Shown here: positions 1-16,037 of the stretch, one piece after another | Numbering within the stretch: position 1 is the first letter of the stretch | Layout: each line of letters begins with the position of its first letter | Source of the DNA: Actinomycetota bacterium | GTDB lineage: Bacteria; Actinomycetota; Thermoleophilia; Gaiellales; F1-60-MAGs149 | Direction: 5' to 3' | NCBI GenBank assembly: GCA_009885805.1 | Contig: VFJZ01000006.1 | Location: 16,582-80,581 of the forward strand | DNA length: 64,000 nt | Notes under the pieces: model-generated | What the model saw: only the letters and a program-made list of their open reading frames with translations | Told to the model about the DNA's origin: nothing | Databases searched by the model: none | Made by a program: the position numbers and the translations under genes

Positions 1-305
1 ACGATCAGCGTCGCATCGAAGTCCATCAGGGCGTCGCCGATCGCGTCGAGCGGCCGGATGTCGCCGATCTGGCCGGTGGCGGTTAGCCCCTCGTGCGCGA
101 GAATCGCGAGCGTCGCCTCCAGGCGCGCCGCCGCTGCCTCGATCGCCCCCGCCTGCGACCAGAGCACGCCGTGCTGCTGGTGGAGCGGCCGCGCCGGAAC
201 GACGACGAGGTACTCCGACGTCCGCTCGTCCTCGATCTGCCTGAGCGCACCAAGCAACTCCTCGGCGCCGACGGTCTCGTTCGCGACTACCAGGACCCTG
301 GACAC
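1..305 (-). CDS. Universal stress protein-like (Usp/adenine nucleotide alpha-hydrolase fold), runs off window edge
   Basis: Not in the ORF track. Manual translation from GTG at 305 with GGAGGTG RBS gives MSRVLVVANETVGAEELL...VVVPA...ARLEATL...GQIGDIRPLDAIGDAL. Confidence 0.7.
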   Translation of the reverse strand, partial: MSRVLVVANETVGAEELLGALRQIEDERTSEYLVVVPARPLHQQHGVLWSQAGAIEAAAARLEATLAILAHEGLTATGQIGDIRPLDAIGDALMDFDATLI

Positions 306-389
306 GCGCGCACCTCCGCGGGGTATCGACCTACGTGCGCAATGGTACTACGGTGAAAGAAAGGGATCAGATCCCGCTCTTTCAACGGT

Positions 390-596
390 TCAGTGCGCTT
401 GGCGCTTCACGTACTGCGCCATGCCGATCGCGACCGCGACGAAGACGACGGCGCCGACGATGCCGACCGCGTCGTACGGCATCGCGTCGACGCCCTTGAA
501 GACCAGCACGATGATGCTGCAGAGCGCGATCGTGAGGGCGATCGTGTACATCACGATCGTGGAGACTGCGGTGTGATTCGTCGGGTCGGCCGGCAC
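390..596 (-). CDS. Small membrane protein with two TM helices
   Basis: GTG at 596 preceded by AGGAGGA; two hydrophobic segments. Confidence 0.55.
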   Translation of the reverse strand: MPADPTNHTAVSTIVMYTIALTIALCSIIVLVFKGVDAMPYDAVGIVGAVVFVAVAIGMAQYVKRQAH

Positions 597-665
597 GGGT
601 CCTCCTGGCAGCGACGATAGCAGGGGGTGTACGCTCCCATCTCCACCCGGACGGAGGAGCAGACG

Positions 666-2027
666 GTGACGCAGCGGCGCTACCTGCTCGCGGAGAGCGA
701 GATCCCGACCCACTGGTACAACGTGATGGCCGACGTCGGTCCGCCGCCGCCGCCACTGCACCCAGGTACGGGCGAGCCGGTCGGGCCGGACATGCTGGCG
801 CCGCTGTTCCCGATGGCGCTGATCGGGCAGGAGATGTCGCCCGAGCGCTGGCATGCGATCCCCGACGTCGTCCGCGATATCTACTCGATGTGGCGCCCGA
901 CGCCGTTGCATCGCGCGCTCGGCCTGGAGGCGGCGCTCGGCACCGACTGCCGCATCTTCTACAAGTACGAGGGCGGCTCACCGGCCGGCTCGCACAAGCC
1001 GAACACCGCCGTCGCGCAGGCGTACTACAACCAGCAGGAGGGCGTCACCCGGATCGCGACCGAGACGGGTGCCGGTCAGTGGGGCTCGGCGCTGTCGTTC
1101 GCGTGCGCCCGGTTCGGCATCGAGGTCAAGGTCTACATGGTGCGCGTCTCGTACGACACGAAGCCGTACCGGCGGGCGATGATGGAGGCCTGGGGCGGCT
1201 CCGTCGTCGGCTCGCCGTCGCGCGACACCAACGCGGGCCGCGCGATCCTCGTCCGCGACCCGCACTCGACCGGTTCCCTCGGGATCGCGATCTCCGAGGC
1301 GGTCGAGGACGCCGCCACCAGGGACGACACGAAGTACGCGCTCGGCTCGGTGCTGAACCACGTCCTGATGCATCAGACCGTGATCGGCCAGGAGGCGCAG
1401 AAGCAGATGGCGATGGCTGAGGCCTACCCGGACGTGGTCGTCGGCTGCGTCGGCGGCGGCTCGAACTTCGCCGGCATCGCCTTCCCGTTCATCGCCGAGA
1501 AGGCCGCCGGCAAGGAGATCAGGATCGTCGCCGCCGAGCCGTCCAGCTGTCCGTCGCTGACGCGCGGCCACTACGGCTACGACTTCGGCGACACCGCGCA
1601 GATGACGCCGCTGCTCGCGATGCACACGCTCGGCCACGGCTTCATCCCCGCTCCGATCCACGCTGGTGGCCTCCGCTATCACGGCATGGCGCCGCTCGTC
1701 TCGAAGCTCGTCAACGACGGGCTGGTGGAGGCGGTCGCCTACGCGCAGAACGACTGCTTCGCGTCCGGCGTCCGCTTCGCGAAGGCGGAGGGGATCATCC
1801 CTGCGCCGGAGGCGAATCATGCGATCCGTGCCGTCGAGGCCGAGGTGGAGGCGGCGCGCGCCGCCGGCGAGAGTCGCACGATCCTCTTCAACCTCTGCGG
1901 TCACGGGCACCTCGAGCTCGGCGCCTACCAGCAGTACCTGAACGGGGAACTGGTCGACTCGGAGCTGCCGCAGAGCGACCTCGACGCGGCCGCAGCCGCC
2001 ATTGCGGGGATGCCGGCGATCGCATGA
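666..2027 (+). CDS. trpB2: TrpB2-type (TrpB-like) PLP enzyme, tryptophan synthase beta chain 2
   Basis: YKYEGGSPAGSHKPNTA PLP-Lys motif, TETGAGQWGS, GCVGGGSN, HAGGLRYHG; RBS GGAGGAG before GTG 666. Confidence 0.92.
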   Translation: MTQRRYLLAESEIPTHWYNVMADVGPPPPPLHPGTGEPVGPDMLAPLFPMALIGQEMSPERWHAIPDVVRDIYSMWRPTPLHRALGLEAALGTDCRIFYKYEGGSPAGSHKPNTAVAQAYYNQQEGVTRIATETGAGQWGSALSFACARFGIEVKVYMVRVSYDTKPYRRAMMEAWGGSVVGSPSRDTNAGRAILVRDPHSTGSLGIAISEAVEDAATRDDTKYALGSVLNHVLMHQTVIGQEAQKQMAMAEAYPDVVVGCVGGGSNFAGIAFPFIAEKAAGKEIRIVAAEPSSCPSLTRGHYGYDFGDTAQMTPLLAMHTLGHGFIPAPIHAGGLRYHGMAPLVSKLVNDGLVEAVAYAQNDCFASGVRFAKAEGIIPAPEANHAIRAVEAEVEAARAAGESRTILFNLCGHGHLELGAYQQYLNGELVDSELPQSDLDAAAAAIAGMPAIA

Positions 2028-4773
2028 GGGTCCGCCTCGCCCTCGTCGCGCTGCTCGCCCTCGCGGTGGTCCCGTCTGCCGCCTCGGCGCGACCGGGGGA
2101 TGTCGATCTCACCTACGGCGCCGCGGGCGCTGCGACGGTTCCGGTCGGCACGGAGCCGCTCGCGGGGAGCGTCGTCGGGGTGCGTCTCCTGGCGGGCGGT
2201 CTTCTCTACGCGGTCGGCGCGGCCGGTGATGGTCGCTACGCGACGGCCCGGCTGGAGCGACGACTGGCGGACGGGTCGGGCGACATCTCCTTCGGCCAGT
2301 TCGGCGGCGTCCAGTTGCGCCTCGACGGTGATGCGTTCCCACTCGGACTGGCGTTGCACCCGACCAGCCTCGAGCCTCACGTCGGCCTGTTCGCGGAGGC
2401 CGACGGCGTGCCGCACCTGGCGGTGGCGCGGCTCTCGACGGCCGGGGTCGCCGACGCGGCCTACGGCGGCGGCGACGGGATCGCGTCCCTGGCGGCTCCC
2501 GGGCTGGTCCCGGTCGGGCTGCTCCCCGAACTCGGCGATGTCGGCTTCGCGGGTCCGGTCGTCCGCTCCGACGGTCGCGCGTACGTCGCCGGACTCTCGC
2601 TCGCCGGCACCACGCCCGTGACGATCGTCGCCGGCTTCACCGATACCGGCGAGCCGGACCCGGGCTTCGGCAGCGGCGGCATCGTCACGATCCCCGATCT
2701 GATGGTCACGCGGATGTCGCTCGCAGCCGATGGCTCCATCTACCTGGCCGGGACCGATCAGTTGTTTTCGAACTCCCAACCGTTCGCGACCGTCCGGCTG
2801 ACCCTCGCCGGCGCGCTCGATCCGGCCTTCGGCGGTGACGGTCGCGTCGAGACGGCCGTCGGCACCGGATCGGCGATGGTCCGCGGCATCGTTCTCGGCC
2901 CGTCGACCGTCACGGTCGGCGGCGGCGCCGAGACGGCCGGCGGCGCCATCGGCGCGCTGGTCCGCTACACGAGCGCGGGCGTGCCCGATGTCACCTTCGA
3001 CGGTGACGGCATCGCCGTCTCGCCCCTGCAGGCCGGCTTCGCGCCGCAGGCGCTGATCAACTACGCCTTCGCCGGCGACCTGTGGCTCGTCGGTCACGGC
3101 AGCGGTGCTCCCGACCCGCTCCTCGTTCAGCGGTTCGATACGACCACGGGTGCCTTCATGGACGCGACGACGCTTGCACTCGGCGGCGACGTGTCGATCC
3201 GCGACCTTGCGTTCGCCCCGTTCAGCCTGGCGCCGCCGTACGCGGCCGGATCGCTGAGGTCGGGGACATCGCGGAACGGCGTCGTGCTGAAGCTGACGGG
3301 CCCGGCGACGCTCGACGCCGCCTTCGGGTCGGCCGGGGTCGCGACGCTCGCGCCCGGGAGTCAGCGCGCCCGGGTCTTCGTCACCGAGGCCGCCCGGACC
3401 GCTGACGATCGCCTGGTCATCGGCGCCGCCGCCGCGAACGGCGGCACGGAGCGCGCGGCCGTGCTGCGCCTGACCAGCACGGGAGCGCTTGACGGCAGCT
3501 TCGCAGGCGGCAGCGTGATCGTTCCCCAGGGTGTCGGCCAGTCCTACGTCTTCGGCATCGACGTCGACGCCACCGGCAGGATCGGTGCTGTCGGACGCGC
3601 CTCCGACGGCGCCAAGGACGTCATCGCCTCGCTGCGGTTGAACGGGAACGGCACCGCCGCCGCCGCGTTCCCCCCGTCGCTGACGGCGTTCCCGACGGCG
3701 GCTCAGGGCGGAGACGTCCTGCTCGATGGGAGCGCGCTGATCGCCGCCGGGCAGATCACGGTCGCCGGCGAGCAACGCTTGCTCGTGACGCGCGTGCTCC
3801 CGGGCGGCCTGCCCGATCCGACGTTCGGCACGGCCGGCGCGACCGTGATCGAGGCCGGCTCCGGTCACGCGGGCGCCACCGAGTTGCTCCGGCAACCGGA
3901 CGGGAAACTCGTCGTCCTGTTCTTCGCGCAGCAGGGCCTGAACGTCGTTGGCCTGGCACGACTGACGCCAACGGGACAACTCGACCCGACGTTTGCCGGT
4001 GGCGCCGGCTTCACGCTGGCCGCCCCGCCGCTGGTTTCGGCGAGTCCCAGCGACCTGGCGCGGACGCCGACGGGCCAGTTCCTCGTGGTTGCCGGGTCGG
4101 AGACGGCGACGCTCGACGGGTTCACGGTGATGCGATTCCGCGCCGACGGCGTGCTCGACGAGTCGTTCGCGACCGGTGGCTTCTACCGGAACGAGATACC
4201 GGCCGGGCTTGGCGTCGGGCGCGATGTCGGCGGCCTCGATGTCGCTCCTGACGGACGGATCCTGGTCGCCGGGACCGACCGCAGTGGGTTCATCGGGAGT
4301 CTGGGCAAGACCTGGCGTCTGACGGCCGCCGGCGCGCTCGACGCGTCGTTCGGGACCAGTGGCGAGGCCACCCTCGGTTCGGATCTGGCCTCGCCGGTCG
4401 CGGTCGTCGTCGCCGCGGATGGCCGCCTTCTCGTCGCGAGCAGCGGGTTCCGTGACGTCGTCGTCCATCGCCTGCTGTCGGATCCGCCGCGGCTCACGTC
4501 GCGCGCGTTCGATCGACGGGGCCGGACGTCGATCCGCCTCGCCGGGCGCGTCACGCCGTTTGGTGGCCGGACGACCTGGTGGGTCGAGTACGGCCGCACG
4601 AAGACGTACGGCAGCGGACGAAGAAGATCGTGATCGGCCCGGCGAGCGCGCGCACCGTGCGGGCCACGCTCCGCTTCCTCCGGCGCAACAGCGTCTACCA
4701 CTACCGGTTCGTCGCCGAGAACGGCTCGGGGCGGACGCTCGGCCGGGACCGTACGTTCCGCACACGTCGCTGA
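2024..4773 (+). CDS. Secreted delta-60/DUF5122-type repeat protein, copy 1; 1-nt deletion near 4613 truncates the ORF at 4633
   Basis: Signal peptide; repeated RL-x-x-x-G-x-LDPxFGxxG; GGCAGCGG where paralogs have GGCAAGCGG; the other frame continues to FRTRR-stop at 4773. Confidence 0.85.
4545..4773 (+). repeat. Conserved C-terminal cassette, also at about 7205-7477, 10020-10254 and 12605-12875
   Basis: GGTGGCCGGACGACCTGGTGGGTCGAGTACGGCCGCACGAAG... is near-identical between copies. Confidence 0.9.
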
Positions 4774-4795
4774 TTCCAGGGAGGAGGGTGCGTTC

Positions 4796-7477
4796 ATGAC
4801 TGTACGCGCCCCGTTCCTGATCTCGCTGGCGCTCCTCGCGGCCCCCTCCGGTGCCTTCGCAGCGCCGGGCGATCTTGACCCCGGCTACGGCGCGGGCGGC
4901 GTCGCCACGGCGACGGTCGCGTCCGACCGGTTCACGAAGGTGGGACTGCCCGTCGACGTCCTGGTCTCGTCCGTCGGCGCCGCCGTCGTCACGGTCGTGA
5001 GCGGCAGTGACGGGAGCAACATCGTCGCGGTCGTCACGCGTCACAGCGCAGCCGGTGCGGTCGACACCGACTTCTCCGGTGACGGCCGGATCGAGATCGG
5101 CGTCGGCGACGGCGACACGATCCCGGTCGGGATCGTCGAACAGCCGGACGGCAAACTCGTCGTCGGGCTGGTGACCAGGATCGGGCGCTCTGCCGCGGTC
5201 AGCCTCGTACGCCTGACCACGAGCGGCGTCTACGACGCGACGTTCGGGGGCGACGGCATCGTCTCCGTGTCGACGCCGGAACTCGACGCCTACGGTCTCA
5301 TTCAGCTAGTCCCGGGCAACGGCATCGTCGGGCCCGTCGTCCACCCAGACGGCCGGCTCTCGATGGTGGGCAGGAGGCCCCGGCCGGACATCGCCGCGAC
5401 CGCGATCGATCTGGTGCTCGTCGCGGCACTCGCCGACGGATCGGTGCCGCCGGCGTTCGCCGGCGGGAGTCTGTCCACGACCCGTGCGGTCGGTTTCGTC
5501 CCGACGTCGCTCGTCGCCGACGGCACGCGCGTTGTGGTCGCGGGTCCGACCGCGACGCAGGGCGCGGAGGCCGTCAGGCTCGATGCCGACGGCGATCCCG
5601 ACCCGGCGTTCGGCGCCCTCGGCCAGCTGTCGCTGACCGGTTTCGGGGCCGGGGGCGGCCCGATCCACCTCGCCGCGACGTCGGCCGGTCTCCTCGTGGC
5701 CGGCGAGGGGCCCGCCGGTGCCTGGCTCGTCCGGCGCGTGTCCGCCTCGGGGGCGACGGATCCGGCGTTCGGGACGGGTGGTACGACGACCATTTCCGCG
5801 CCCGGCGGGCAGATCAACGGCATCGGCGTCCGCGGAGCGACCACGGAGGTCATCCTCGGCGGAACCGACCTCGCGGGGAACCGTGTCCTGCGCAAGCTCG
5901 ACTTCACGACGGGCACCGTGATCCCCTTCGCGGCGACGGCCGAGGCCGCCGGTCTGACGGGGAGTGCGATCGCCGTCGGGCCGGGGCAGGTGCTGATCGC
6001 CGGTCGACCGTTGGGCTCGACGCGCGACGGCGGGATCGTCGCCTTCCGATCGCTGTCGGGTGTCGCCGACGGCACGTTCACCCAGGTCGTTATCTCGACC
6101 GGGAGCGGCCCGATTCGCGGCGTCGGGCCGGACCGCGCCATCGTCGCGCCGGACGGATCGGTGTACTCGGCGACACACGTGACGAGCGGTCCCAGTAACC
6201 TGATCGCGCTCCACGGCTTCGCGCCGGGCGGCGTCGCCGGACAGAACGTCGACGTTCCGGGCCTGACCTCGCAGGAGTTCGTGTCGGCCGTCGCGGTCGA
6301 TGGCGGCGGCCGGGTCTACGTGGCGACGGTCGCCTCGTCGCCGAACCGCGTCGTCGTCTCGCGGCACCAGCCGAACGGAACCGGTGACCCGTCGTTCGCG
6401 CCGGTCGTCATCCCGACTCCCAGCTTCGCGTCCATCTCCCGGCTCCTCGCCGATGAGGCCGGCCTGGTCGTCGTTGTGAACGGCCAGCTCGGGGGATCCG
6501 TTCGCTGCCGGCTCACGCGGTATGCGACGAGTGGTGCACCCGATCCGGCCTTCGGTCTCGCCGGCTCGATCGAACTCGGCGTCACCTGCATCGACGTCGT
6601 GCCGGTCGGTACCGGCCTCGCCGTCGGCAGCGAACGCATTTCGGGGGCAGATTCGGCGGCGGAGATCCGGCGTTACGACGCCGCGGGCGACCCGGTGCTG
6701 TCGTTCTCGGGCGACGCTGTCATGACGATCCCGCTCGGGCACGATGAGTCGGGCGTCTTGGGGCTCGCGGCCCGGCCCGGTGGGGCGCTCGCCGCGTTCG
6801 TGACCCGGGTAGCCGTCGGCGGCGGTGGCCGGTCGGCCGACGTTGCGGCCGTCCGCGCCGACGGTGTCCTCGACCCGGCGTTCGGGAACGGTGGCTTCGC
6901 CCGCGTCGGGGAGTTCGCGGCCTCGACGTTCCCGACGGGGCGGCTCGCGTCCGCGCCGGACGGGCGCCTCGTCGTCGCGTTGAACTCGGGCGTGTCCGGC
7001 GGCGACGCGATCTCCCTCGTCCGCGTCACGACGAACGGCGTCGCGCAGCCGCTCGCCGCGGGCGCCCGCGCGGTCGTCCTCGGGCCGCAGGCGCGGCCGG
7101 AAGCACTCTCGGTCCTCGTTGACGGCCGGATCATGCTCGCCGCCGCGGGCGACGCACGGCTCCGTGCGGCGCGGATCCTGTCCGACCGGCCCGTGATCGC
7201 CTCACGGCGGTTCGATCGCCGCGGGCGGAAGTCGGTTCGCGTCGCCGGGCGCGTGTCGCCGCTCGGTGGCCGGACGACCTGGTGGGTCGAGTACGGCCGC
7301 ACGAAGACGTACGGCAAGCGGACGAAGAAGATCGTGATCGGCCCGGCGAGCGCGCGCACCGTGCGGGCCACGCTCCGCTTTCTGCGGCGCAACAGCGTCT
7401 ACCACTACCGGCTCGTGGCACAGAACGGGTCGGGGCGGACGATCGGCCGCGACCGCGTGTTCCGAACTCGCCGCTGA
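4796..7477 (+). CDS. Secreted delta-60/DUF5122-type repeat protein, copy 2
   Basis: RBS GGAGG; signal peptide then APGDLDPGYG; QPDGKLVV and DPAFG repeats; basic FN3/Ig-like tail. Confidence 0.88.
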   Translation: MTVRAPFLISLALLAAPSGAFAAPGDLDPGYGAGGVATATVASDRFTKVGLPVDVLVSSVGAAVVTVVSGSDGSNIVAVVTRHSAAGAVDTDFSGDGRIEIGVGDGDTIPVGIVEQPDGKLVVGLVTRIGRSAAVSLVRLTTSGVYDATFGGDGIVSVSTPELDAYGLIQLVPGNGIVGPVVHPDGRLSMVGRRPRPDIAATAIDLVLVAALADGSVPPAFAGGSLSTTRAVGFVPTSLVADGTRVVVAGPTATQGAEAVRLDADGDPDPAFGALGQLSLTGFGAGGGPIHLAATSAGLLVAGEGPAGAWLVRRVSASGATDPAFGTGGTTTISAPGGQINGIGVRGATTEVILGGTDLAGNRVLRKLDFTTGTVIPFAATAEAAGLTGSAIAVGPGQVLIAGRPLGSTRDGGIVAFRSLSGVADGTFTQVVISTGSGPIRGVGPDRAIVAPDGSVYSATHVTSGPSNLIALHGFAPGGVAGQNVDVPGLTSQEFVSAVAVDGGGRVYVATVASSPNRVVVSRHQPNGTGDPSFAPVVIPTPSFASISRLLADEAGLVVVVNGQLGGSVRCRLTRYATSGAPDPAFGLAGSIELGVTCIDVVPVGTGLAVGSERISGADSAAEIRRYDAAGDPVLSFSGDAVMTIPLGHDESGVLGLAARPGGALAAFVTRVAVGGGGRSADVAAVRADGVLDPAFGNGGFARVGEFAASTFPTGRLASAPDGRLVVALNSGVSGGDAISLVRVTTNGVAQPLAAGARAVVLGPQARPEALSVLVDGRIMLAAAGDARLRAARILSDRPVIASRRFDRRGRKSVRVAGRVSPLGGRTTWWVEYGRTKTYGKRTKKIVIGPASARTVRATLRFLRRNSVYHYRLVAQNGSGRTIGRDRVFRTRR

Positions 7478-7512
7478 CCCGACTCCCGGTCGTTCCGGTG
7501 CATGATGGGTGG

Positions 7513-10254
7513 ATGCGACTCACGGGATTCGTCCTTGCCCTCCTGTTCGCGCCGGCGGCGGCCGGCGCCGTGCCGGGCGACCTCGATCAATCGTACGGGT
7601 CGGGTGGCGTCGCGACGATCGTCACCGGCCTCGGCATGCGCTCGTCGCCCGTGATCGGCATCGACTTAGGCGCCGCCAACCTCGTCACCGTCCGCGTCGT
7701 CCCCGAGGGCGGCCGTTACGTCGCCCGTCTCGAGCGCCTGTTGTTGAATGGCCAGCCTGATCCGGCGTTCGTCCCGGCGAACCTGTTCGCGGGCGACGGC
7801 GACCTGATCCCGACGGGCCTCGACCGCGACTCGTTGGGCCGCATCTACATCGCCGGCTTCGCCCGCGTCGGCAGGGCGTCGGCGTTCGCGGTGGTGCGGA
7901 CGGACGCCGCCGGCGTGCTCGACCCGGCCTTCGGCGCCGGGGGACGCGTCCTCGTCCCCTATCCGGCGCTTGCGCCGGACCTCGATCAGACGCTGCGGGC
8001 CGCGAACCCGCCGGGCTCGCCGCCGGTGCTGCTCGCCGACGGCGGGGTTGCCGTTGCGCTGCGTGCGCGTGGCGCGGGCGGCAGCGTGGCCTCGGTCGTG
8101 CTGCAGGTCGACGGCGCCGGCGCGCCGGTCGTCGCCTTCGGCGGCGACGGTATCGCCGACCCGACGCCGGCGACGACGGGCGTCATGCCGGATGCAATCG
8201 TCCAGGATGGCGCCGGGCGGATCCTCCTCACCGGCGACCCGGTCGGGGTGCCGGCACGGCCGCTGATGGTGGTCGCGCTGACACCTGCCGGGGTGCCTGA
8301 CCCTGCGTACGGCGGCGGCGATGGAGTCGCGACGACGGCGCTCGGCGGCACGATCGGCGATGCGGCGCTCGTGCGCTTCGGCGCCGTGGTGTTCGCCGCC
8401 GGTGTGAACCAGAACCGCGCGTTCGTGCTCGCGCGGTTCGCCGCAGACGGGCAGCTCGATCCGGCTCTCGACGGCGACGGTGTCGCGATCTCGGCGGACA
8501 CGAACGTCGCGACGCTCGCCGGCGCGGTGCTCGGCTCGGCCGGTGGGTTCAACTTTCGCATCGACGTCGCGGGCGCGAGCCTCGCCGGGATCGTCTTCCG
8601 GCGCGCGCACCCCGCGACCGGGTTCGAGGCGGCCGGCGGCACCGTCGCGATCCCGCCCGGCGGCTTCGTCAGCGCACGGGCGCTGGTTCTCGGCACTGGC
8701 GGCCCGTACGCCGCCGGTCTGCTGCGCGAGGACCCGTTGCGACGCCCATACCTGGCGTCGTGGGACTTCGTGGCCGACGCTCCCCGCGCCGCCTTCGGAA
8801 CCGGCGGACAGGTGATCGGCGACGTGCCGGCACCGGGCCGCGAGGTCTTCAACGCGACCTCCGGGCTGCTCGCCGCGAGCGGTGGCGTCCGGATTGCCGG
8901 AGTCGGCGACACGGACGGCGTACTCGGTGCACGCGTGGTCGGCTTCACGCCCGCTGGTGCGCCGGACGCCGGCTTCGGCGTCGGCGGCGTCGCGACGACC
9001 GGGCTCGGCGGTACGCTCGACATCTGGGGGGATGTCGCGCTGCTGGCCGGTGGACGGATCGCGCTCGCCGGCTCGAGCCGGGTCGCCGCCGAGGTCCGCC
9101 CGGCCGGGCTCGTCCTCGGCCCGGCCGGCGTCGTCGACCCCGTCTTTACACCTTTCCGTCTGCCGGGCGCGGCGCCCTTCGCGTCCGGCTCGGCGGTCGT
9201 CGGCGACAGTGGCGGCGTCGTCTACGGCATCACGGAGTTCGCGGTCGGCGCCACGGCGAGCCTGGTGCGTTTCCGCGCGGACGGCGCCCGCGACCTGGGC
9301 TTCGGTGGCGGCGACGGACACGTCGACGTCGCGCCGGGGGCCGGCGGCTCCGTCACCGACCTCCTGCGCCAGCCCTCGGGACGCCTCGTCGTCGCGGTGG
9401 CGGCCGTCGCCGTCGGCGCACCCTCGTTCCTGCGCGCCTACACGTCGGTCGGCGCACCGGATCCCGCTTTCGGCGCCGGCGGTACGGTCGCGCTGCCGCC
9501 GGGCGTATACCCGGTGCGGCTCGGCTCGTTCCCGGACGGCGACATCGTGGTCGGCGGCGCGATCGCAGGCGTCGTGCCGCCCGGCTCCGCGGTCCTCCGC
9601 TACTCGCGCAACGGCGCGCCACGCCCGACCTACGCCGGCGACGGCCGCGCCGAGGTCGGCCACCCGACCGACGGGGCGCGGCTGACGGGACTTGCCCCGC
9701 TGCCCGACGGCCGCCTGTACGTTGCGCTCGCCCTGACAGCGAGTTCATTCGTCGATGGCTCAGGTTTCCTGCCGTCCGGCAGCCGCATCGTGCGTCTGCG
9801 CGGGGACGGCTCCGCAGACTCGGCGTTCGGCGGCGACGGCGTCGTCGACCCGCCGCTCGGCCCGGAGGCGAACGCGGCAGGGGTCGCGATCGAGCCTGGC
9901 GGCCGTGCGCTCCTCTTCGGCAGCGACGAGGGCGTCGGCTTCGTCGCGCGGCTGCTCGGCGACCCACCCTCCGCGTCGACACGACGGGCCGATCGCCTGG
10001 GTCGGACGTCGGCGCGCGTGTCCGGCCGCCTCACGCCGCGCGGCGGGCGCACGACGTGGTGGATCGAGTACGGCCGCACGAAGACGTACGGCAAGCGGAC
10101 GAAGAAGCTCGTGATCGGGCCGGCGACTGCCCGGACGGTGCGTGCGATCCTGCGCGGGCTGCGTCCCGGGACCGTGTACCACTATCGGTTGGTCGCGCAG
10201 AACGGAAGTGGGATCACGCGGGGACGTGATCGAACCGTACGCACACGTCGCTGA
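7513..10254 (+). CDS. Secreted delta-60/DUF5122-type repeat protein, copy 3
   Basis: MRLTGFVLALLFAPAAAGA signal then VPGDLDQSYG; LDPAFG repeats; same basic tail. Confidence 0.88.
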   Translation: MRLTGFVLALLFAPAAAGAVPGDLDQSYGSGGVATIVTGLGMRSSPVIGIDLGAANLVTVRVVPEGGRYVARLERLLLNGQPDPAFVPANLFAGDGDLIPTGLDRDSLGRIYIAGFARVGRASAFAVVRTDAAGVLDPAFGAGGRVLVPYPALAPDLDQTLRAANPPGSPPVLLADGGVAVALRARGAGGSVASVVLQVDGAGAPVVAFGGDGIADPTPATTGVMPDAIVQDGAGRILLTGDPVGVPARPLMVVALTPAGVPDPAYGGGDGVATTALGGTIGDAALVRFGAVVFAAGVNQNRAFVLARFAADGQLDPALDGDGVAISADTNVATLAGAVLGSAGGFNFRIDVAGASLAGIVFRRAHPATGFEAAGGTVAIPPGGFVSARALVLGTGGPYAAGLLREDPLRRPYLASWDFVADAPRAAFGTGGQVIGDVPAPGREVFNATSGLLAASGGVRIAGVGDTDGVLGARVVGFTPAGAPDAGFGVGGVATTGLGGTLDIWGDVALLAGGRIALAGSSRVAAEVRPAGLVLGPAGVVDPVFTPFRLPGAAPFASGSAVVGDSGGVVYGITEFAVGATASLVRFRADGARDLGFGGGDGHVDVAPGAGGSVTDLLRQPSGRLVVAVAAVAVGAPSFLRAYTSVGAPDPAFGAGGTVALPPGVYPVRLGSFPDGDIVVGGAIAGVVPPGSAVLRYSRNGAPRPTYAGDGRAEVGHPTDGARLTGLAPLPDGRLYVALALTASSFVDGSGFLPSGSRIVRLRGDGSADSAFGGDGVVDPPLGPEANAAGVAIEPGGRALLFGSDEGVGFVARLLGDPPSASTRRADRLGRTSARVSGRLTPRGGRTTWWIEYGRTKTYGKRTKKLVIGPATARTVRAILRGLRPGTVYHYRLVAQNGSGITRGRDRTVRTRR

Positions 10255-10276
10255 TGATCGGGGTAGGGTGTCGACT

Positions 10277-12875
10277 ATGACCGCCCGCTTCTCGTTCCTG
10301 ATCGCCCTGGCCGTCGTCGCCGCACCCTCGCCGCGCCCGGCGATCTCGACCCGACCTACGGCGCCGGCGGGATCGCGACCGCGACCGCTTCCTCGGACAC
10401 GTCGTCCACGGTCGGCCTCCCGGCCGCGATCGACGTCGCCGCAGACGGCGACACGCTTGCGATCACGACAGGCACGGACGGCGACGATCTGATCGCGATC
10501 GTGACGCCGAACTCGGCGCTCGGCGCGCCCGACACGGGCTTCTCGTCCGATGGCCGCTACGAGGTCGCCGTCGGCGACGGCGACACGATCCCGATCGGCC
10601 TCGCCGAGCAGGCCGACGGGCGGATCTCCTCGGCCTCGTGACGCGTGTCGGACGTCGCGCGGCGCTGACGCTCGTTCGCCTGACCGCCGTCGGCGCGTAC
10701 GACTCGGCGTACGGCGGCGGTGATGGGATCGTGACCGTTGTCGTACCAGGGCTTCAGGCCTACGGCCTGACGCCGATATCGCCAGGCATCGGGGTCGTCG
10801 GGCCCGTGATCGGCTCGGACGGTCGGATCTCGATCGTCGGCTGTTCCGAACGGTAGCCGTCGGACGCTCCGAACGGTGGGCTTCACGCCGACGGCCCTCG
10901 CGGCGGATGGGACGGGTGTCGTCGTGGCCGGCCCGCCGAGAGACTTCGCATCGGGCGCCCAGGCCGTCCGGCTGGACGGGTCGGGTGCGCTCGATGTGAC
11001 CTTCCGGACGCTTGGCCAGCAGACGCTCACCGGCTTCGGCGGTGGCGGCCGGGCGGTGCGGCTGAGCCCTTCACTCGGCGGCCTGCTCGTCGCCGGGAGC
11101 GATGGCGCCAACTGGCTCGTCCGTCGGATGACACCTACGGGTGCCACCGATCCGGCTTTCAACGGCGGTACCACGTCGTTTCCGGTTGCGAACGCTGCGT
11201 TTCTCGATATCGGCATATCGGCATCGGCGGCGCGCCGACGCCGACGATCATCATCGGTGGCACCCTCGGCGGCAACCGCGTGCTGCGCAAACTCGATCTC
11301 GCGACCGGTGCACCCATGGCCTTCGCGGGAACGATCGAGGCGACGGGATTTGTCGCGGCGTCGGCGCTCGCTGTCGGCGGCGCGCAGGTGCTGATCGGCG
11401 GTCGACCGGCGTCCCCGTCACGCGACGGCGGTGTGGTCGCGTTCCGGACCAGCAGCGGGGTCCTGGACGGGACCTACGCGCCGGTCGTGATCGGGACGGG
11501 AACGGCGCCGATGCCCGTGGCGATCGCGACGGCCGCGACCTTCGCGCCGACCGGCGCTCTCCGGTCGGGGTCCTTCATCACGAGCCTCGGACAGGGCCTC
11601 GTGGCGCTGCGTGGGTTCGATGCCGCCGGGACGCTGGTCACGGGAGGAGACCAGGTGTTCCATCCGAGCCAGAACTCCGTCACTGGAGTCGCAGTCGACG
11701 CAACCGGGCGGCTCCTGGTCGGCGGTAGGACGACATCGCCCGTCGGCGTGTTCGTCGCTCGGGCCCTGCCTGACGGCACGCCGGACCCGGCCCTGACGCC
11801 GGTCTCCATCGCGACGCCGGCGTTCGCCCAGGTCACGGCGATCCTGCCTGGCGCTGATGGGTTCATCGTCGCCGTCGGCGGCGCGCTGGGCGGAAACGTC
11901 CTCTGTCGGCTCCTCCGCTACGGCAACGCCGGAGCGCCCGATCCCGGGTTCGGGCTGGGTGGCTCGGTCGACCTCGACGTCGTCTGCGGCGCCGTCCGGC
12001 GCGTGGGATCGGGGTTCGTCGTCGCCTCCGCGCGCCAGACCGGTCCGGACGTTGTCATGGAGATCCGCCGCTACGACGTCGCGGGCGATCCGGTCGCGGC
12101 GTTCTCGGGAGACGGCCTCATGACCGTTCCGCTCGGGCAGGACGGCTCGCAGGTCCACGCGGTGGTCGAGCGTCCTGGCGATCGGCTCGCGGCCCTGGTC
12201 GGCCGCGTTCCGGTCAGCGGTGGCGGTCGGTCGATCGTCGCTGCGGCGATCCGAGCCGACGGCACGCTCGACCCCGCGTTCGGGGCGGGCGGGCTCGCCG
12301 CCGTCGGCGACGCGCCGCCCGGCGTGTTCCCGGCCGGACGCCTGGCGGCGTCGTCTGATGGGCGTCTGGTCGTCGGCCTGACGACGGGCGGTGGAGGCGA
12401 TGACGAGCTCGAGTTGTTCCGGCTGTCGGCGGCCGGAACGGTCCAGCCGCTCGCGACGGGTGCAAGAGCGATCGTGCTTGGCCAGAACGCGTTGATCCAG
12501 GCGATCGAGGTCCTCGGCGACGGTCGGATCATGGTGGCGGCGAACGGCGACCGTCGGCTCCGCGGCCTTCGTGTGCTGTCCGACCGGCCCGGGGTCGTAG
12601 CGCGCCGGTTCGATCGCCGCTGGCGGAAGTCGGTTCGCGTCGCCGGGCGCGTGTCGCCGCTCGGTGGCCGGACGACCTGGTGGGTCGAGTACGGCCGCAC
12701 GAAGAAGTACGGCAAGCGGACGAAGAAGCTCGTGATCGGCCCGGCGAGCGCCAGGACGGTACGGGTGCTGCTCCGCACCCTGCGCCCCGGGACGCGGTAC
12801 CACTACCGCTTCGTTGCCGAGAACGGTTCCGGCCGAATCGTCGGCCGCGACCGGGTGGTGCGCACGCGGCGGTAG
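10277..12875 (+). pseudogene. Delta-60/DUF5122-type repeat protein, copy 4 (closest to copy 2), several frameshifts
   Basis: Homology to copy 2 switches frame near 10330, 10630 and 11230, with an apparent internal deletion near 10850; intact 3' part 11280-12875. Confidence 0.82.
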
Positions 12876-12890
12876 GACGGGCCGGTCGCG

Positions 12891-12896
12891 TATACT
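12891..12896 (+). promoter_or_regulatory. -10 element (TATACT) of tRNA-Asp
   Basis: TATACT 10 nt upstream of the tRNA 5' end. Confidence 0.6.
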
Positions 12897-12906
12897 GGGG
12901 CTACGC

Positions 12907-12980
<74 letters not shown>

Positions 12981-13066
12981 CCTCGCGGATAGAGGGCTCG
13001 CGTCGGTCTCGAAGGCGTGGCCCATCTTCGTCCCGGAGTTTGCGAACCAAGCCGGGGCTAGCTCGG

Positions 13067-13360
13067 TCACTCGTCGCTCGAGGATTGAGGGACTCGCAGT
13101 ACGACGTTACCCGCCTTCTGGCCGGTCTCGACGTAGCGGTTCGCCTCGACGGCGTCGCCGAGCGGATAGGTGCGGTCGATCACGGGCCGGTACGCGCCGG
13201 TGTCGACGAGCTCAGAGATGTGCTGGAGATCGTCGCCGTGATAGCGGCCGATACCGAGCCTCGCGCGTCGGCTCCCGACGAAGTGCGTGACGAGCGCGAT
13301 TAGCGGCACGTGGTACATGAACCCGAGACCGGCCGTGATGTAGATTCCGTCGGGCTTCAG
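13067..13360 (-). pseudogene. C-terminal fragment of an MDR-family (zinc-binding ADH-like/quinone) oxidoreductase
   Basis: LKPDGIYI...ELVDTGAYRPVIDRTYPLGDAVEANRYVETGQKAGNVVL; no N-terminus. Confidence 0.75.
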
Positions 13361-13379
13361 AGAACGGCGGCAGCGTCGG

Positions 13380-13851
13380 AACGGCGTTGCGCTGCTCGGT
13401 CTCGTGCAAGAGCCGCTGCGTCTCGTCGAGCAGCCTCGCGTTCTCGAGCGCCGGCCCGAGCGTGGCGGCGAGCGCCTCGACGAGCCGCACGTCGGCCTCG
13501 TCGAACGCCTGCGGCTCCCCGGCCTCGGCGGCGATCGCACCGCGCCCCTGCCCGCCCCAGCGGATCGGAACCGAGAGGTACGACTGGCTGGCGTCGATCC
13601 GCGTACCGGGGATCTGCACGATCCCGAGCGCTTCGATCTCGGCCTGCGAGCTCGCGACGACGGTACGGCCCTCCGCCAGGAACGGGTCGAGCCCGGGGGG
13701 GCGACCGGAACGGGTCGGGGTGGCCCCGGACGCCCCCTTCGTACAGGTAGAGGATGTGAATGAGGCCGGGCGCCTCGTCGAGCCAGTCGATCGACACGTC
13801 ACCGCGCCCGAGGAGCTCGCGGACGGTGTCGCCGGCGACCTCGACGCGCAC
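13380..13851 (-). pseudogene. Frameshifted GAF-domain fragment of a sensor protein
   Basis: SYLSVPIRWGG...AFDEADVRLVEALAATLGPALENARLLDETQRLLHETEQRNA; upstream part in another frame. Confidence 0.75.
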
Positions 13852-14066
13852 CGGTCACTTGGGCCATGCCCCCTGTTGCCGGCGCCCTGGAGATGTCGAC
13901 CGGTTCCACGCCGCGCGGGGGGGGGCGGCCCGGTATAGTCGCACGATGGAGATCGCGAGTTTCGCGGGCAGGCGCCGGCGTTTCGTGCTCGGGTGTACGC
14001 CTCCTCCGGTGCGGTCGCGCCCGCCGGCGCCGCCGATCGCTCCCGTCGATCAGCGGGGGTCACGCG

Positions 14067-15578
14067 ATGCGGGAGACTGACACGCTGGTGATCGGCGGCG
14101 GCGCGGCGGGCTGCGCCCTCGCCGGCCTCCTCGCCGAACGCTCGAACGAGCGGGTGCTCGTGGTCGAGGCGGGTCCCGACTACGGGCCGCTCGCCGCCGG
14201 CCGCTGGCCGGCGGAGCTGCTCGACGCATCGCAGACCCCGCCGTTCACGCACGAGTGGGGCTACGACAGCGGCGACCAGTTCCCCGACCGGGTGCTCACG
14301 TTCGACCGGGCGCGCGTCATCGGCGGCTGCGGCGCCCACAACGGCTGCCAGGCGATCATCGGCCACCGCGACGACTACGACGCCTGGGCGGCGGCCGGCA
14401 ACCCGGGCTGGAGCACCGCCGACCTCGAGCCGCACATCGCCAGCCTGAAGGCCCGGCTCCGGGTGCGGCTCTACGACGACGACGAGATCACCCCGATCCA
14501 CCGGCTGAACATCGAGGCGCTGACCGCGTGCGACGTGCCGCGCGTTGTCGACCTGAACGACCTCGACCAGGACCTCGGCGTCGCGCCGAACCCCGTCAAC
14601 ATCGTCGATGGGATCCGCTTCAACGCCGCGTTCGCCTACCTCGACCCGGTTCGCGATCGCCCGAACCTGACGATCGTCGGCGATGCGCTGTGCGACCGGC
14701 TGGTCGTCGAGGGCGGACGCGTCGTCGGCGCGGTGTTCGTGATCGACGGGCGACCGGAGACGATCCGGGCCGCGCGGGTGGTCCTCGCCGCCGGCGTCTA
14801 CGGCTCGCCGGCGATCCTCCTGCGGTCCGGGATCGGCGACCCGGCAGCGCTCGGACGGCTCGGCATCGCCGTGCAGCACGCCCTCCCCGGCGTGGGGTCG
14901 AACCTGCACGACCACCCGGGTGCCGATCTCCACTTCGCCGGCACCGAGGAGCTCGTCGCGCGGTCGCGCGCGTTCGAGGCGGCGCGCTTCCACCCGGAGG
15001 AGCAGGTGATCGCGAAGCTGCGGACGAGCGGCTGCAGCTCCGCCTTCGACCTCCACGTCTACCCGGTCGGCGGCGCCGACCACGCCGACCCGGACCGCTT
15101 CACCTGGGTCTACATGGTCGGCCTGCTGACGTCCAACGCGCGCGGCTCGCTCACGCTCCGCTCGGCCGATCCGACCGCGGCGCCGATCCTCGACCACGCC
15201 CTCCTCCGCGACGAGACGGGCTCCGATCTGGCACGGCTGACCGAGGGCTTCGAGATGCTCGAGCAGGTGCTCGCGTACCCGGAGCTCGCCCGCCTGCTCG
15301 GCTCCGAGACGTTCCCCGGGCCGGCGCTGCGGGCGGCGTACTCGACACGGGAGATCGTCGCGCGCAGCGTCACGCACTGCTACCACCCCGTCGGCACCTG
15401 CAAGATGGGGCCGGCCTCCGACCCGACAGCGGTCGTCGACGCCACCGGGCGCCTCCACGGCCTCGATGGCTGCTTCGTCGCGGACGCCTCGATCATGCCG
15501 ACGGTCCCGCGCGGGAACACCCACCTGCCGGCGGTCCTCGTCGGCGAGCGCGTCGCCGCCTTCCTCGCCCCGGTGTGA
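14067..15578 (+). CDS. GMC oxidoreductase (choline dehydrogenase/oxidase family)
   Basis: VIGGGAAG, RARVIGGCGAHN, GVGSNLHDH, YHPVGTCKMG, VADASIMP, GNTH. Confidence 0.9.
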   Translation: MRETDTLVIGGGAAGCALAGLLAERSNERVLVVEAGPDYGPLAAGRWPAELLDASQTPPFTHEWGYDSGDQFPDRVLTFDRARVIGGCGAHNGCQAIIGHRDDYDAWAAAGNPGWSTADLEPHIASLKARLRVRLYDDDEITPIHRLNIEALTACDVPRVVDLNDLDQDLGVAPNPVNIVDGIRFNAAFAYLDPVRDRPNLTIVGDALCDRLVVEGGRVVGAVFVIDGRPETIRAARVVLAAGVYGSPAILLRSGIGDPAALGRLGIAVQHALPGVGSNLHDHPGADLHFAGTEELVARSRAFEAARFHPEEQVIAKLRTSGCSSAFDLHVYPVGGADHADPDRFTWVYMVGLLTSNARGSLTLRSADPTAAPILDHALLRDETGSDLARLTEGFEMLEQVLAYPELARLLGSETFPGPALRAAYSTREIVARSVTHCYHPVGTCKMGPASDPTAVVDATGRLHGLDGCFVADASIMPTVPRGNTHLPAVLVGERVAAFLAPV

Positions 15579-15611
15579 CGCCGTTGGCGAAGGCTGCCGC
15601 GACCGTCCACG

Positions 15612-16037
15612 ATGGCGCCGATACCCGCAGCCCCGCTTCCGCCCGAGCTCGCCAACTACCTCGCCGCGCCGAGGTTCGCCGTCGTCGCGACGCTGCGCTA
15701 CGGCGGCGCTCCCGTGACGGTGGCGACGTGGTACGGGCTCGAGGGTGACCGGCTGCTGCTCTCGATGGACGAGACCCGTGTCCGGCTCGCGCACCTGCGT
15801 CGCGACCCGCACGTCGCGCTCACGGTGCTCGACGACGAGTGGTCGCGGCACCTGTCGCTGCTCGGCACCGTCGAGACCCTCCGCGAGGATCGCGGCCTCG
15901 CCGACATCGACGCCATCACGCGGCGCCACACGGGAGAGCCGTGGCCCGACCGGGGCGACCGGCGCTTGACCGCCGTCGTGCGCGTCGGCCGGTGGCCCAC
16001 GTGGGGCGGGCCCGTCGAGATGAGCGGCGACGGCTGA
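15612..16037 (+). CDS. PPOX-class putative F420-dependent oxidoreductase
   Basis: AVVATLRxxGAP...WY...RLAHLRRDPHVALTV split-barrel pattern. Confidence 0.8.
   Translation: MAPIPAAPLPPELANYLAAPRFAVVATLRYGGAPVTVATWYGLEGDRLLLSMDETRVRLAHLRRDPHVALTVLDDEWSRHLSLLGTVETLREDRGLADIDAITRRHTGEPWPDRGDRRLTAVVRVGRWPTWGGPVEMSGDG

Follow-up and report, generated by a model that had tools for sequence, protein, structure and literature searches.

The closest described relatives of the proteins discussed here are those of the delta-60 (DUF5122) family. Our subject is a tandem array of four genes for such proteins, g1 to g4, in a stretch of 64,000 nucleotides (nt), the window, from an uncultured sediment member of the Actinomycetota (Thermoleophilia, Gaiellales, F1-60-MAGs149; GenBank assembly GCA_009885805.1, contig VFJZ01000006.1, positions 16,582 to 80,581 of the forward strand). 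The genome is of 3.56 Mb and 95% complete, and is called G000 in locus names; positions without a contig name are those of the window. In the passages returned by our literature search there was nothing in print on the function of the delta-60 repeat, and DUF5122 came up only in a modelling study (PMC8078820). The array proteins have in common with the family the repeats, a body modelled as about 14 four-stranded blades, and export. They differ in the C-terminal module, which is here a single polybasic FN3 domain, whereas in the family member P0025 the delta-60 repeats are accompanied by two FN3 domains of the ordinary kind and an additional C-terminal extension.

That C-terminal domain, which we will call the tail, is in turn closest to the FN3 domains of the PhoD_N/Pur_ac_phosph_N type. 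It has the same predicted fold and conserved positions, with 39-46% identity to the copies in RTX-type and other exported proteins, but here it is single, strictly C-terminal and far more basic than other copies of the family.

There are also parallels in principle with wall-binding modules that are otherwise quite different. Electrostatic binding to anionic wall polymers is proposed for the wall-binding regions of high pI in Lactobacillus S-layer proteins (PMC3666127), the GW modules of Listeria InlB and autolysins give non-covalent, charge-assisted wall binding (PMC7155027, PMC10714868), and CWB2 motifs bind the anionic polymer PSII (PMC4973711). By analogy, the principle proposed for the tail would be the same, with a basic terminal region holding an exported protein non-covalently on anionic wall polymers. 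However these modules are not FN3 domains and have no kinship with the tail in sequence or fold, and while for them binding has been shown or proposed, here it is predicted from charge. Among the papers listed by literature searches on basic C-terminal wall-binding domains and on Thermoleophilia secretomes there were known Firmicutes systems only, with Thermoleophilia unmentioned.

Thermoleophilia are abundant in soil and sediment and almost uncultured. To our knowledge the ways in which monoderms outside the Firmicutes and classical Actinomycetes retain exported proteins at their surface are poorly known, and the interest of this locus lies mainly in a possible charge-encoded strategy of retention.

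Four tandem genes for delta-60 propeller proteins

The four genes are co-oriented on the + strand in tandem at 2024-12875. The window had earlier been interpreted from its letters alone (the sequence-only reading), as coding for four proteins of about 870-920 aa. This stands for g2 (4796..7477, 893 aa) and g3 (7513..10254, 913 aa), both of which are intact, but not for g1 (2024..4633, 869 aa as read) and g4 (10277..12875), which are frame-broken, the breaks having been read through silently. The N-termini of g1-g3 resemble Sec signal peptides in their n-, h- and c-regions, with 1-2 Arg, a hydrophobic core of 12 residues (Kyte-Doolittle 2.3-3.2) and a cleavage site of ASA, AFA or AGA directly before PGD(L/V)D..YG, and strict matches to the D-x-x-F/Y-G repeat number 7-14 per protein. 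The same reading was thus right in seeing tandem paralogs with signal peptides and repeats of this type.

It was also right to suspect delta-60/DUF5122 propellers. For g1, g2 and g3 respectively, the TIGR02608 (delta-60) scores are 195.8, 91.5 and 87.9 bits against a cut-off of 76.5, and the PF17164 (DUF5122) scores 111, 51.4 and 56.5 bits against a cut-off of 27. The whole genome has 19 delta-60 repeat matches, every one of them in this cluster. In the AlphaFold2 (AF2) model of g2, made with 40 aligned homologs and having a mean pLDDT of 81.1, the stretch from residue 36 to residue 794 forms 14 groups of four strands, 56 in all. The top Foldseek matches of this model in the PDB are double propellers, 2ymu_A (E 7.8e-15) and 1nr0, with matches spanning E 1e-12 to 8e-15; the title of 1nr0 specifies two seven-bladed propellers, and 2ymu_A is also listed as a DUF5122 template in the modelling study (PMC8078820). 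We conclude that the bodies of g1-g3 are delta-60/DUF5122 propeller proteins, modelled as about 14 blades in two propellers. The bodies are acidic, with a net charge of -13 to -22, and over their full length the proteins come out near neutral to mildly basic (+7 to +12).

None of the familiar means of surface attachment was found in g1-g3, as the sequence-only reading had said of LPxTG, transmembrane (TM) anchor and lipobox. The three proteins are without an LP.TG motif, a C-terminal hydrophobic segment, a convincing TM segment or a lipobox Cys; Cys is absent altogether from g1 and g3, and the two in g2 are far from the N-terminus. Pfam and NCBIfam searches of the three proteins at E<=0.1 gave no SLH, LysM, GW/SH3, CWB2, T9SS C-terminal or PEP-CTERM match, and for SLH there is no match anywhere in the genome. 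One sortase gene is present in the genome.

The C-terminal tail is an FN3 domain of extreme charge

The bodies of the paralogs are only 30-33% identical (52% for g2/g4), and the tails 60-80%, with a net charge of +21 to +24 over the last 100 residues and a pI of 12, so that the description of the proteins as variable bodies on a constant polybasic tail is a good one. The tail was also thought to be FN3-like, and this is borne out by both predicted fold and homology. The last 95 or so residues are modelled by AF2 as a beta-sandwich (mean pLDDT 92.7, pTM 0.83), for which Foldseek gives 42 matches at E<=1e-3, with TM 0.5-0.7 to the FN3 domains of the RsgI4 sensor, Dscam, NCAM, titin and gp130; titin FN3 is also matched in a PDB sequence search with the tail. 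A search with the g2 tail found 26 proteins outside the window, with E down to 1e-67 and identities of 31-49% (mostly 39-46%), and 22 of the 26 are annotated with PF16655 (PhoD_N), PF16656 (Pur_ac_phosph_N) and PF00041 (fn3), the domain being in tandem and internal. The ESM Atlas clusters nearest to the tail are likewise FN3/Pur_ac_phosph_N (score 0.85), which we treat as a lead. The curated Pfam cut-offs are not reached by the tails themselves, the g3 tail scoring 20.4, 19.1 and 15 bits against cut-offs of 30, 30 and 25 (E 7.5e-4 to 0.03) and the g2 tail giving no match at E<=0.1, most likely because of the charge substitutions described below.

At E<=1e-3 a profile made from the four tails finds 24,694 representative proteins, and at E<=1e-30 it still finds 1,584. 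The 150 strongest matches have 5-35 copies of the domain per protein, and of 1,427 copies in 177 proteins, a sample taken from the top of the match lists and so biased to multi-copy proteins, only 13 end within 10 residues of the C-terminus. By homology and modelled fold, then, the tail is an FN3-superfamily domain of a very common bacterial family, and the possibility that it is a new domain family is ruled out by its homology to annotated FN3 proteins and the reach of the profile. The sequence-only reading had proposed an undescribed constant module, with internal occurrence named beforehand as a finding that would count against it; since the FN3 family is normally internal and in tandem, that proposal has to be given up.

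What sets the tail apart from its family is its charge. Taken as 105 aa, the linker plus FN3 tail of g2 (7160..7474) has a net charge of +26 (+24 over the last 100 residues), the g3 tail (9937..10251) +22, and the g4 tail (12558..12872), which is uninterrupted, +26; in g1 the remainder of the tail (4615..4773, 52 codons plus stop) is in another frame. For the window tails as a whole the range is +22 to +26, with 25-30% Arg plus Lys, whereas the other 1,427 copies have a mean net charge of -2.2 (sd 3.3, maximum +13) and 3.7% basic residues (maximum 15%). Lys accounts for 4-6% of tail residues, against 1.4% in the predicted proteome. At 20 positions Lys or Arg is present in at least three of the four polybasic tails but in under 15% of the family, which has mostly Thr, Ser, Ala, Gly or Asn there, while family-conserved positions (P11, G46, Y51, L75, Y81, H82, R84, G96, T103 and others) are kept. 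Within strands the acquired Arg and Lys alternate with core positions, and as the family has Thr, Ser or Ala at the same places, we infer that they face the solvent. On these sequence comparisons the charge of the tail is an extreme, conserved and derived trait.

Distribution and constancy of the tail

The polybasic variant was found in the four copies of the window, in one metagenome-assembled genome (MAG) of the same genus (G002), and on one metagenomic contig (P0032, a g1-like protein, intact, 925 aa), and the basic character of the tail is kept in both of the latter. In the 60 relatives searched there were otherwise only generic FN3 arrays (best E 2.6e-17). A scan for the polybasic pattern in 185,579 species genomes gave 24 candidate stretches of which one was confirmed, that of G002, and in metagenome contigs one of 130 was confirmed, with an identity of only 36%, so that these scans yielded no further convincing case. 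In G002 a single delta-60 copy lies between an ortholog (87% identical) of the TrpB-like gene that precedes g1, from which it is separated by about 45 nt, and the tRNA-Asp gene that also follows g4 in the window. It changes frame once, from 3 to 1, at about 12770-12790 of L013 (G002:C6), and as this is a 10-contig assembly, an indel error is possible. With a single copy in the same place in G002, the array is best read as a lineage-specific tandem expansion of one ancestral gene.

The identity of 60-80% between tails is maintained even between organisms, the bodies being 30-45% identical, and with dN/dS of 0.29-0.42 in the tail this indicates stronger selection on tail than on body. There is in addition a pattern at the nucleotide level, in that the tail cores of g1 and g2 have 145 of 150 nt in common as against 47 of 100 just upstream, g2 and g4 have a 149-nt stretch with at most 4 differences, and each pair of paralogs has 70-76 nt that are near-identical. 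These comparisons lead us to attribute the constancy of the tail to purifying selection plus gene conversion.

A core of about 75 nt (TGGTGG...AAGAAG...GGCCCGGCG), at 7274-7349 and at about 4572-4646, 10051-10126 and 12672-12747, is near-identical in all four tails, with at most 4 differences per pair. We considered a nucleotide-level element in this core and rejected it: Rfam on window 1-16000 has the tRNA as its sole match, and G002 differs in the core at synonymous sites. No such element is needed, as amino-acid conservation, codon bias and gene conversion are sufficient.

The broken copies g1 and g4

Contigs from four public runs could be aligned to the region, X1 and X4 from two samples of one study, which probably include the source of the present assembly, and X5 and X6 from another study, in which the strain is about 96-97% identical to the window. 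The gene g4 is readable only through four frame changes (1>3>2>3>2 by tblastn), at about 10324, 10626, 10843-10850 and 11207. Over three of these sites X1 and X4 match the window without gaps (X4 at 9897-10351 and 10565-10997, X1 at 11100-11589). Relative to the window, there are 10 additional nt after 10324 in X5, which also has 89 nt replacing 6 at 10843-10850, and both X5 and X6 have 1 extra nt after 10626 and 8 nt fewer at 11207. These changes are exactly at the four frame-change points and each restores the frame modulo 3, so that g4, which is nearest to g2 in sequence, is intact in a close relative and is a genuine and recent pseudogene in this genome. The 10 nt absent from g4 (window 10319-10335) adjoin a short direct repeat, CCCTCG, as slippage deletion would predict.

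In g1 the frame stops prematurely at 4633, inside the tail, after ...WWVEYGRTKTYG. At about 4613 the site of a Lys codon that is intact in g2-g4 reads ggc-a[a]g-cgg, with one A missing (4613..4614). We therefore treat g1 as a candidate for a 1-nt deletion, and possibly a decaying copy, which is unverified: none of the listed contigs bridges 4613, those of X5 and X6 both ending at 4597, and over 4774-7279, in g2, these two runs have no long contig piece among those listed. Programmed frameshifting is unsupported, there being no slippery heptamer around GGC-AGC-GGA. The body of g1 appears to be under purifying selection between strains: of the 76 sites that differ, 39 were listed, and the codon changes in these are 22 synonymous and 14 nonsynonymous.

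The 4597 position at which independent contigs break is at the edge of the 75-nt core, and the g1 deletion falls inside it. One X5 contig joins window position 12737 to 4699, so that the 3' end of its g4 tail is more like the end of g1 in the window than that of g4, which hints at a mosaic produced by gene conversion.

Basic C-termini on other exported proteins

The tail itself is confined to the array, but basic C-termini are not. We scored the net charge of the last 100 residues in 2,023 open reading frames (ORFs) that were 200 aa or longer and had a coding-like pattern of GC over the codon positions. The exported set comprised 112 ORFs, each with 300 aa or more, an N-terminus like a signal peptide and nothing TM-like after it, and g2, g3 and g4 are outside this set. 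The last 100-aa window is at +10 or more in 16 of the 112 (14.3%). For internal windows of these proteins the figure is 8 of 339 (2.4%, Fisher p 1e-5), and for the C-terminal windows of other, non-exported ORFs it is 18 of 965 (1.9%, p 3e-8).

The heads that carry such ends are varied. They include two peptidases, one an M36 metallopeptidase that ends in a basic PKD domain and the other M11/reprolysin-like, as well as a Rha78A_N protein whose basic end is CarboxypepD_reg/Big_1-like, a beta-helix protein and an Amidase_2 wall hydrolase. In two giant haem-peroxidase/RTX proteins the bodies are at -116 and -145 and the C-terminal windows at +19. Exported proteins with unrelated heads in which an acidic body is followed by 100 strongly basic last residues (+15 to +22), all within L016-L032, are at C35:150729-152951, C7:295-1590, C22:48717-50492, C93:25618-28551, C30:87748-90111, C92:13293-15095, C67:47673-49814, C83:6294-8279, C19:24100-26136, C77:23655-25373 and C5:30608-31858. 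Comparison of 46 basic C-terminal regions revealed no detectable mutual similarity except for g2 with g4. A common basic motif at the very end, as a sorting signal might require, was looked for and discarded, as it is not enriched (R is the final residue of 23 of 112 exported and of 169 of 965 other ORFs, p 0.43). Short polybasic tails bracketed by Cys were also sought, and the 2,023 ORFs gave one dubious match and no convincing one; the FN3 tail of the array has no Cys. Unrelated heads, ends that are not homologous and the lack of a motif together point to convergent selection, at the level of composition, on the last domain of exported proteins.

The giants themselves are at G000:C19:273-6560 (2095 aa) and C25:14186-19192 (1668 aa), in L019/L020, with animal-type haem peroxidase matches (E 1e-54 and 4e-58) plus RTX repeats.

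It could be that in this Thermoleophilia lineage exported proteins are commonly held at the surface by a cationic last domain, evolved repeatedly by supercharging whatever beta-sandwich happened to be C-terminal, so that retention would be encoded in charge and independent of sequence. We put this forward tentatively and consider it rather doubtful in such a general form. It would have FN3 in this role on the delta-60 propellers, PKD on the M36 peptidase and the CarboxypepD_reg/Big_1-like domain on the Rha78A-like protein, with other tails that lack a Pfam match on the peroxidases and the wall amidase, and the array described here would show it most clearly and in its most extreme form. As the ORF and signal-peptide calls are crude and come from one genome without a control genome, we rate the genome-wide pattern as a lead.

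Proposed role of the tail and alternatives

For the array itself we suggest the following. A single ancestral gene has expanded in tandem, each copy encoding a Sec-exported acidic double propeller with one C-terminal FN3 domain. After export the cationic FN3 domain would tether the acidic propeller head non-covalently to a polyanionic layer of the cell's own envelope, and the propellers would serve as diversified binding heads. We see this account, taken as a whole and resting as it does on sequence and models, as evenly poised between right and wrong. The tether is plausible in view of the conserved and extreme charge, the basic C-terminal enrichment, and the sorting or anchoring domains on other delta-60 proteins. 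Among 120 listed delta-60 homologs there are PF18962 on 9, SLH on 2, FlgD_ig on 6 and RTX on 4, from which we see that delta-60 heads are often paired with such modules; PF18962 we take to be the T9SS C-terminal domain, in agreement with the source name of homolog P0052. The presence of four LCP glycopolymer ligase genes in the genome we also count for a tether, together with the excess of Lys in the tails, and the Lactobacillus S-layer proteins cited above offer a precedent.

Several observations weigh on the other side. Searches of three further genomes of the genus (96%, 85% and 61% complete) gave no match to the variant, so that the protein would be dispensable, and with its occurrence in two genomes and on one contig its distribution is narrow and patchy. 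Relaxed selection would fit the breakage of two of the four copies. A teichoic acid polymerase of the TagF/TagB type (PF04464) was not found in this genome, at the completeness given above. The sequence-only reading proposed interchangeable heads on the tail, but a tblastn search of this genome with it gave only the four delta-60 copies, the next match being at E 0.09, and there were no stand-alone short tail proteins among 21 candidates of 57-184 aa. The uncertain calls behind the basic C-terminal enrichment and its single genome also count here, as do the net charges of the whole proteins, to which we now turn.

The tail may simply balance charge, the basic FN3 domain offsetting the acidic propellers in the interest of solubility, folding or export kinetics, or it may be a plain spacer, and in neither case would it bind anything specifically. 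The figures are compatible with this, as bodies of -13 to -22 and tails of +21 to +24 give whole proteins at +7 to +12, and the FN3 family does usually form stalks or spacers in tandem arrays. However the 1,427 other copies, which are in acidic proteins, stay non-basic (mean -2.2), the charge is confined to the last domain instead of being spread along the protein, and the same abrupt switch occurs in the peroxidase giants, where a tail of +19 cannot balance bodies of -116 and -145. We regard balancing as unlikely. The charge evidence would serve equally well if the tail were an adhesive end and not an anchor, binding polyanions outside the cell such as extracellular DNA, humic matter, minerals, polyphosphate or the envelopes of other cells, and the runs that have the locus and a recorded source are all freshwater-sediment or sediment metagenomes. 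But a released protein with an adhesive tail is of no obvious benefit to its producer, and the peptidoglycan amidase among the other proteins with basic C-termini acts on the wall of the cell itself, so that we find adhesion of this type quite improbable.

Opposite charges on body and tail would also allow the tail to dock on the acidic propeller of a neighbour, within or between paralogs, in a head-to-tail surface lattice or fibre, and the co-oriented paralogs, 22-35 nt apart, are consistent with the co-expression that this might need. As G002 has one copy only and nothing specifically supports it, self-assembly seems to us very unlikely. The least probable of these alternatives is a dedicated sorting signal that a specific machine for secretion, processing or attachment would recognise, in the manner of LPXTG, PEP-CTERM and T9SS C-terminal domains. 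The tail is strictly C-terminal in all six known copies, each ending in a basic ...R-T-(R/L)-R, as such a signal would be, but it is on no other protein of the genome and is a fully folded FN3 domain of a normally internal family. In addition there are no flanking genes common to this genome and G002 near the locus beyond the TrpB-like gene and tRNA-Asp, the basic C-termini of the other exported proteins have no sequence in common with the tail, and exported ORFs are not enriched in a terminal basic motif.

If a folded domain can indeed become a wall tether by gaining surface Arg and Lys, then sorting motifs alone cannot predict surface proteomes, and C-terminal charge would be a usable predictor of surface proteins. 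The FN3 tail, with 95 residues and a net charge of about +24, is a concrete and cheap object for a test. For annotation, two of the four genes should be entered as broken and the supposed new module as an FN3 domain.

Gene context and minor observations

The array is preceded by the gene for a TrpB-like PLP-dependent enzyme (627..2027, + strand; Pfam PALP, E 1.5e-40), the TGA of which is overlapped by the ATG of g1 (ATGA at 2024-2027). The spacers between successive paralogs are 22-35 nt, and there is a ribosome-binding site, GGGAGGAGGG, upstream of g2. The co-orientation of the genes, the short spacers and the ATGA overlap are consistent with one transcription unit. A promoter and terminator scan gave no promoter-like and three terminator-like sites, not above shuffled sequence, and there was no RNA run among the listed runs that contain the locus. 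The + strand frames are supported by the codon-position GC of g2 (0.72/0.58/0.89), and the long antisense ORFs over the array we dismiss as the usual artefacts of high GC. The overlap also suggests translational coupling of an exported propeller protein with the gene for a cytoplasmic enzyme.

Downstream of g4 is tRNA-Asp (GTC; 12907..12982, + strand), which is the synteny anchor with G002. In G002 a gene of about 510 codons (L013 14702-16237, - strand), serine carboxypeptidase-like by eye from its translation, lies between the delta-60 gene and tRNA-Asp; it is missing at this position in the window, where g4 ends 31 nt before the tRNA. Beyond the tRNA, on the - strand at 13212-15929 of the window, is a gene for a 905-aa protein in which about 740 residues have no Pfam match and the only recognised part is a C-terminal GAF domain (E 6e-7).

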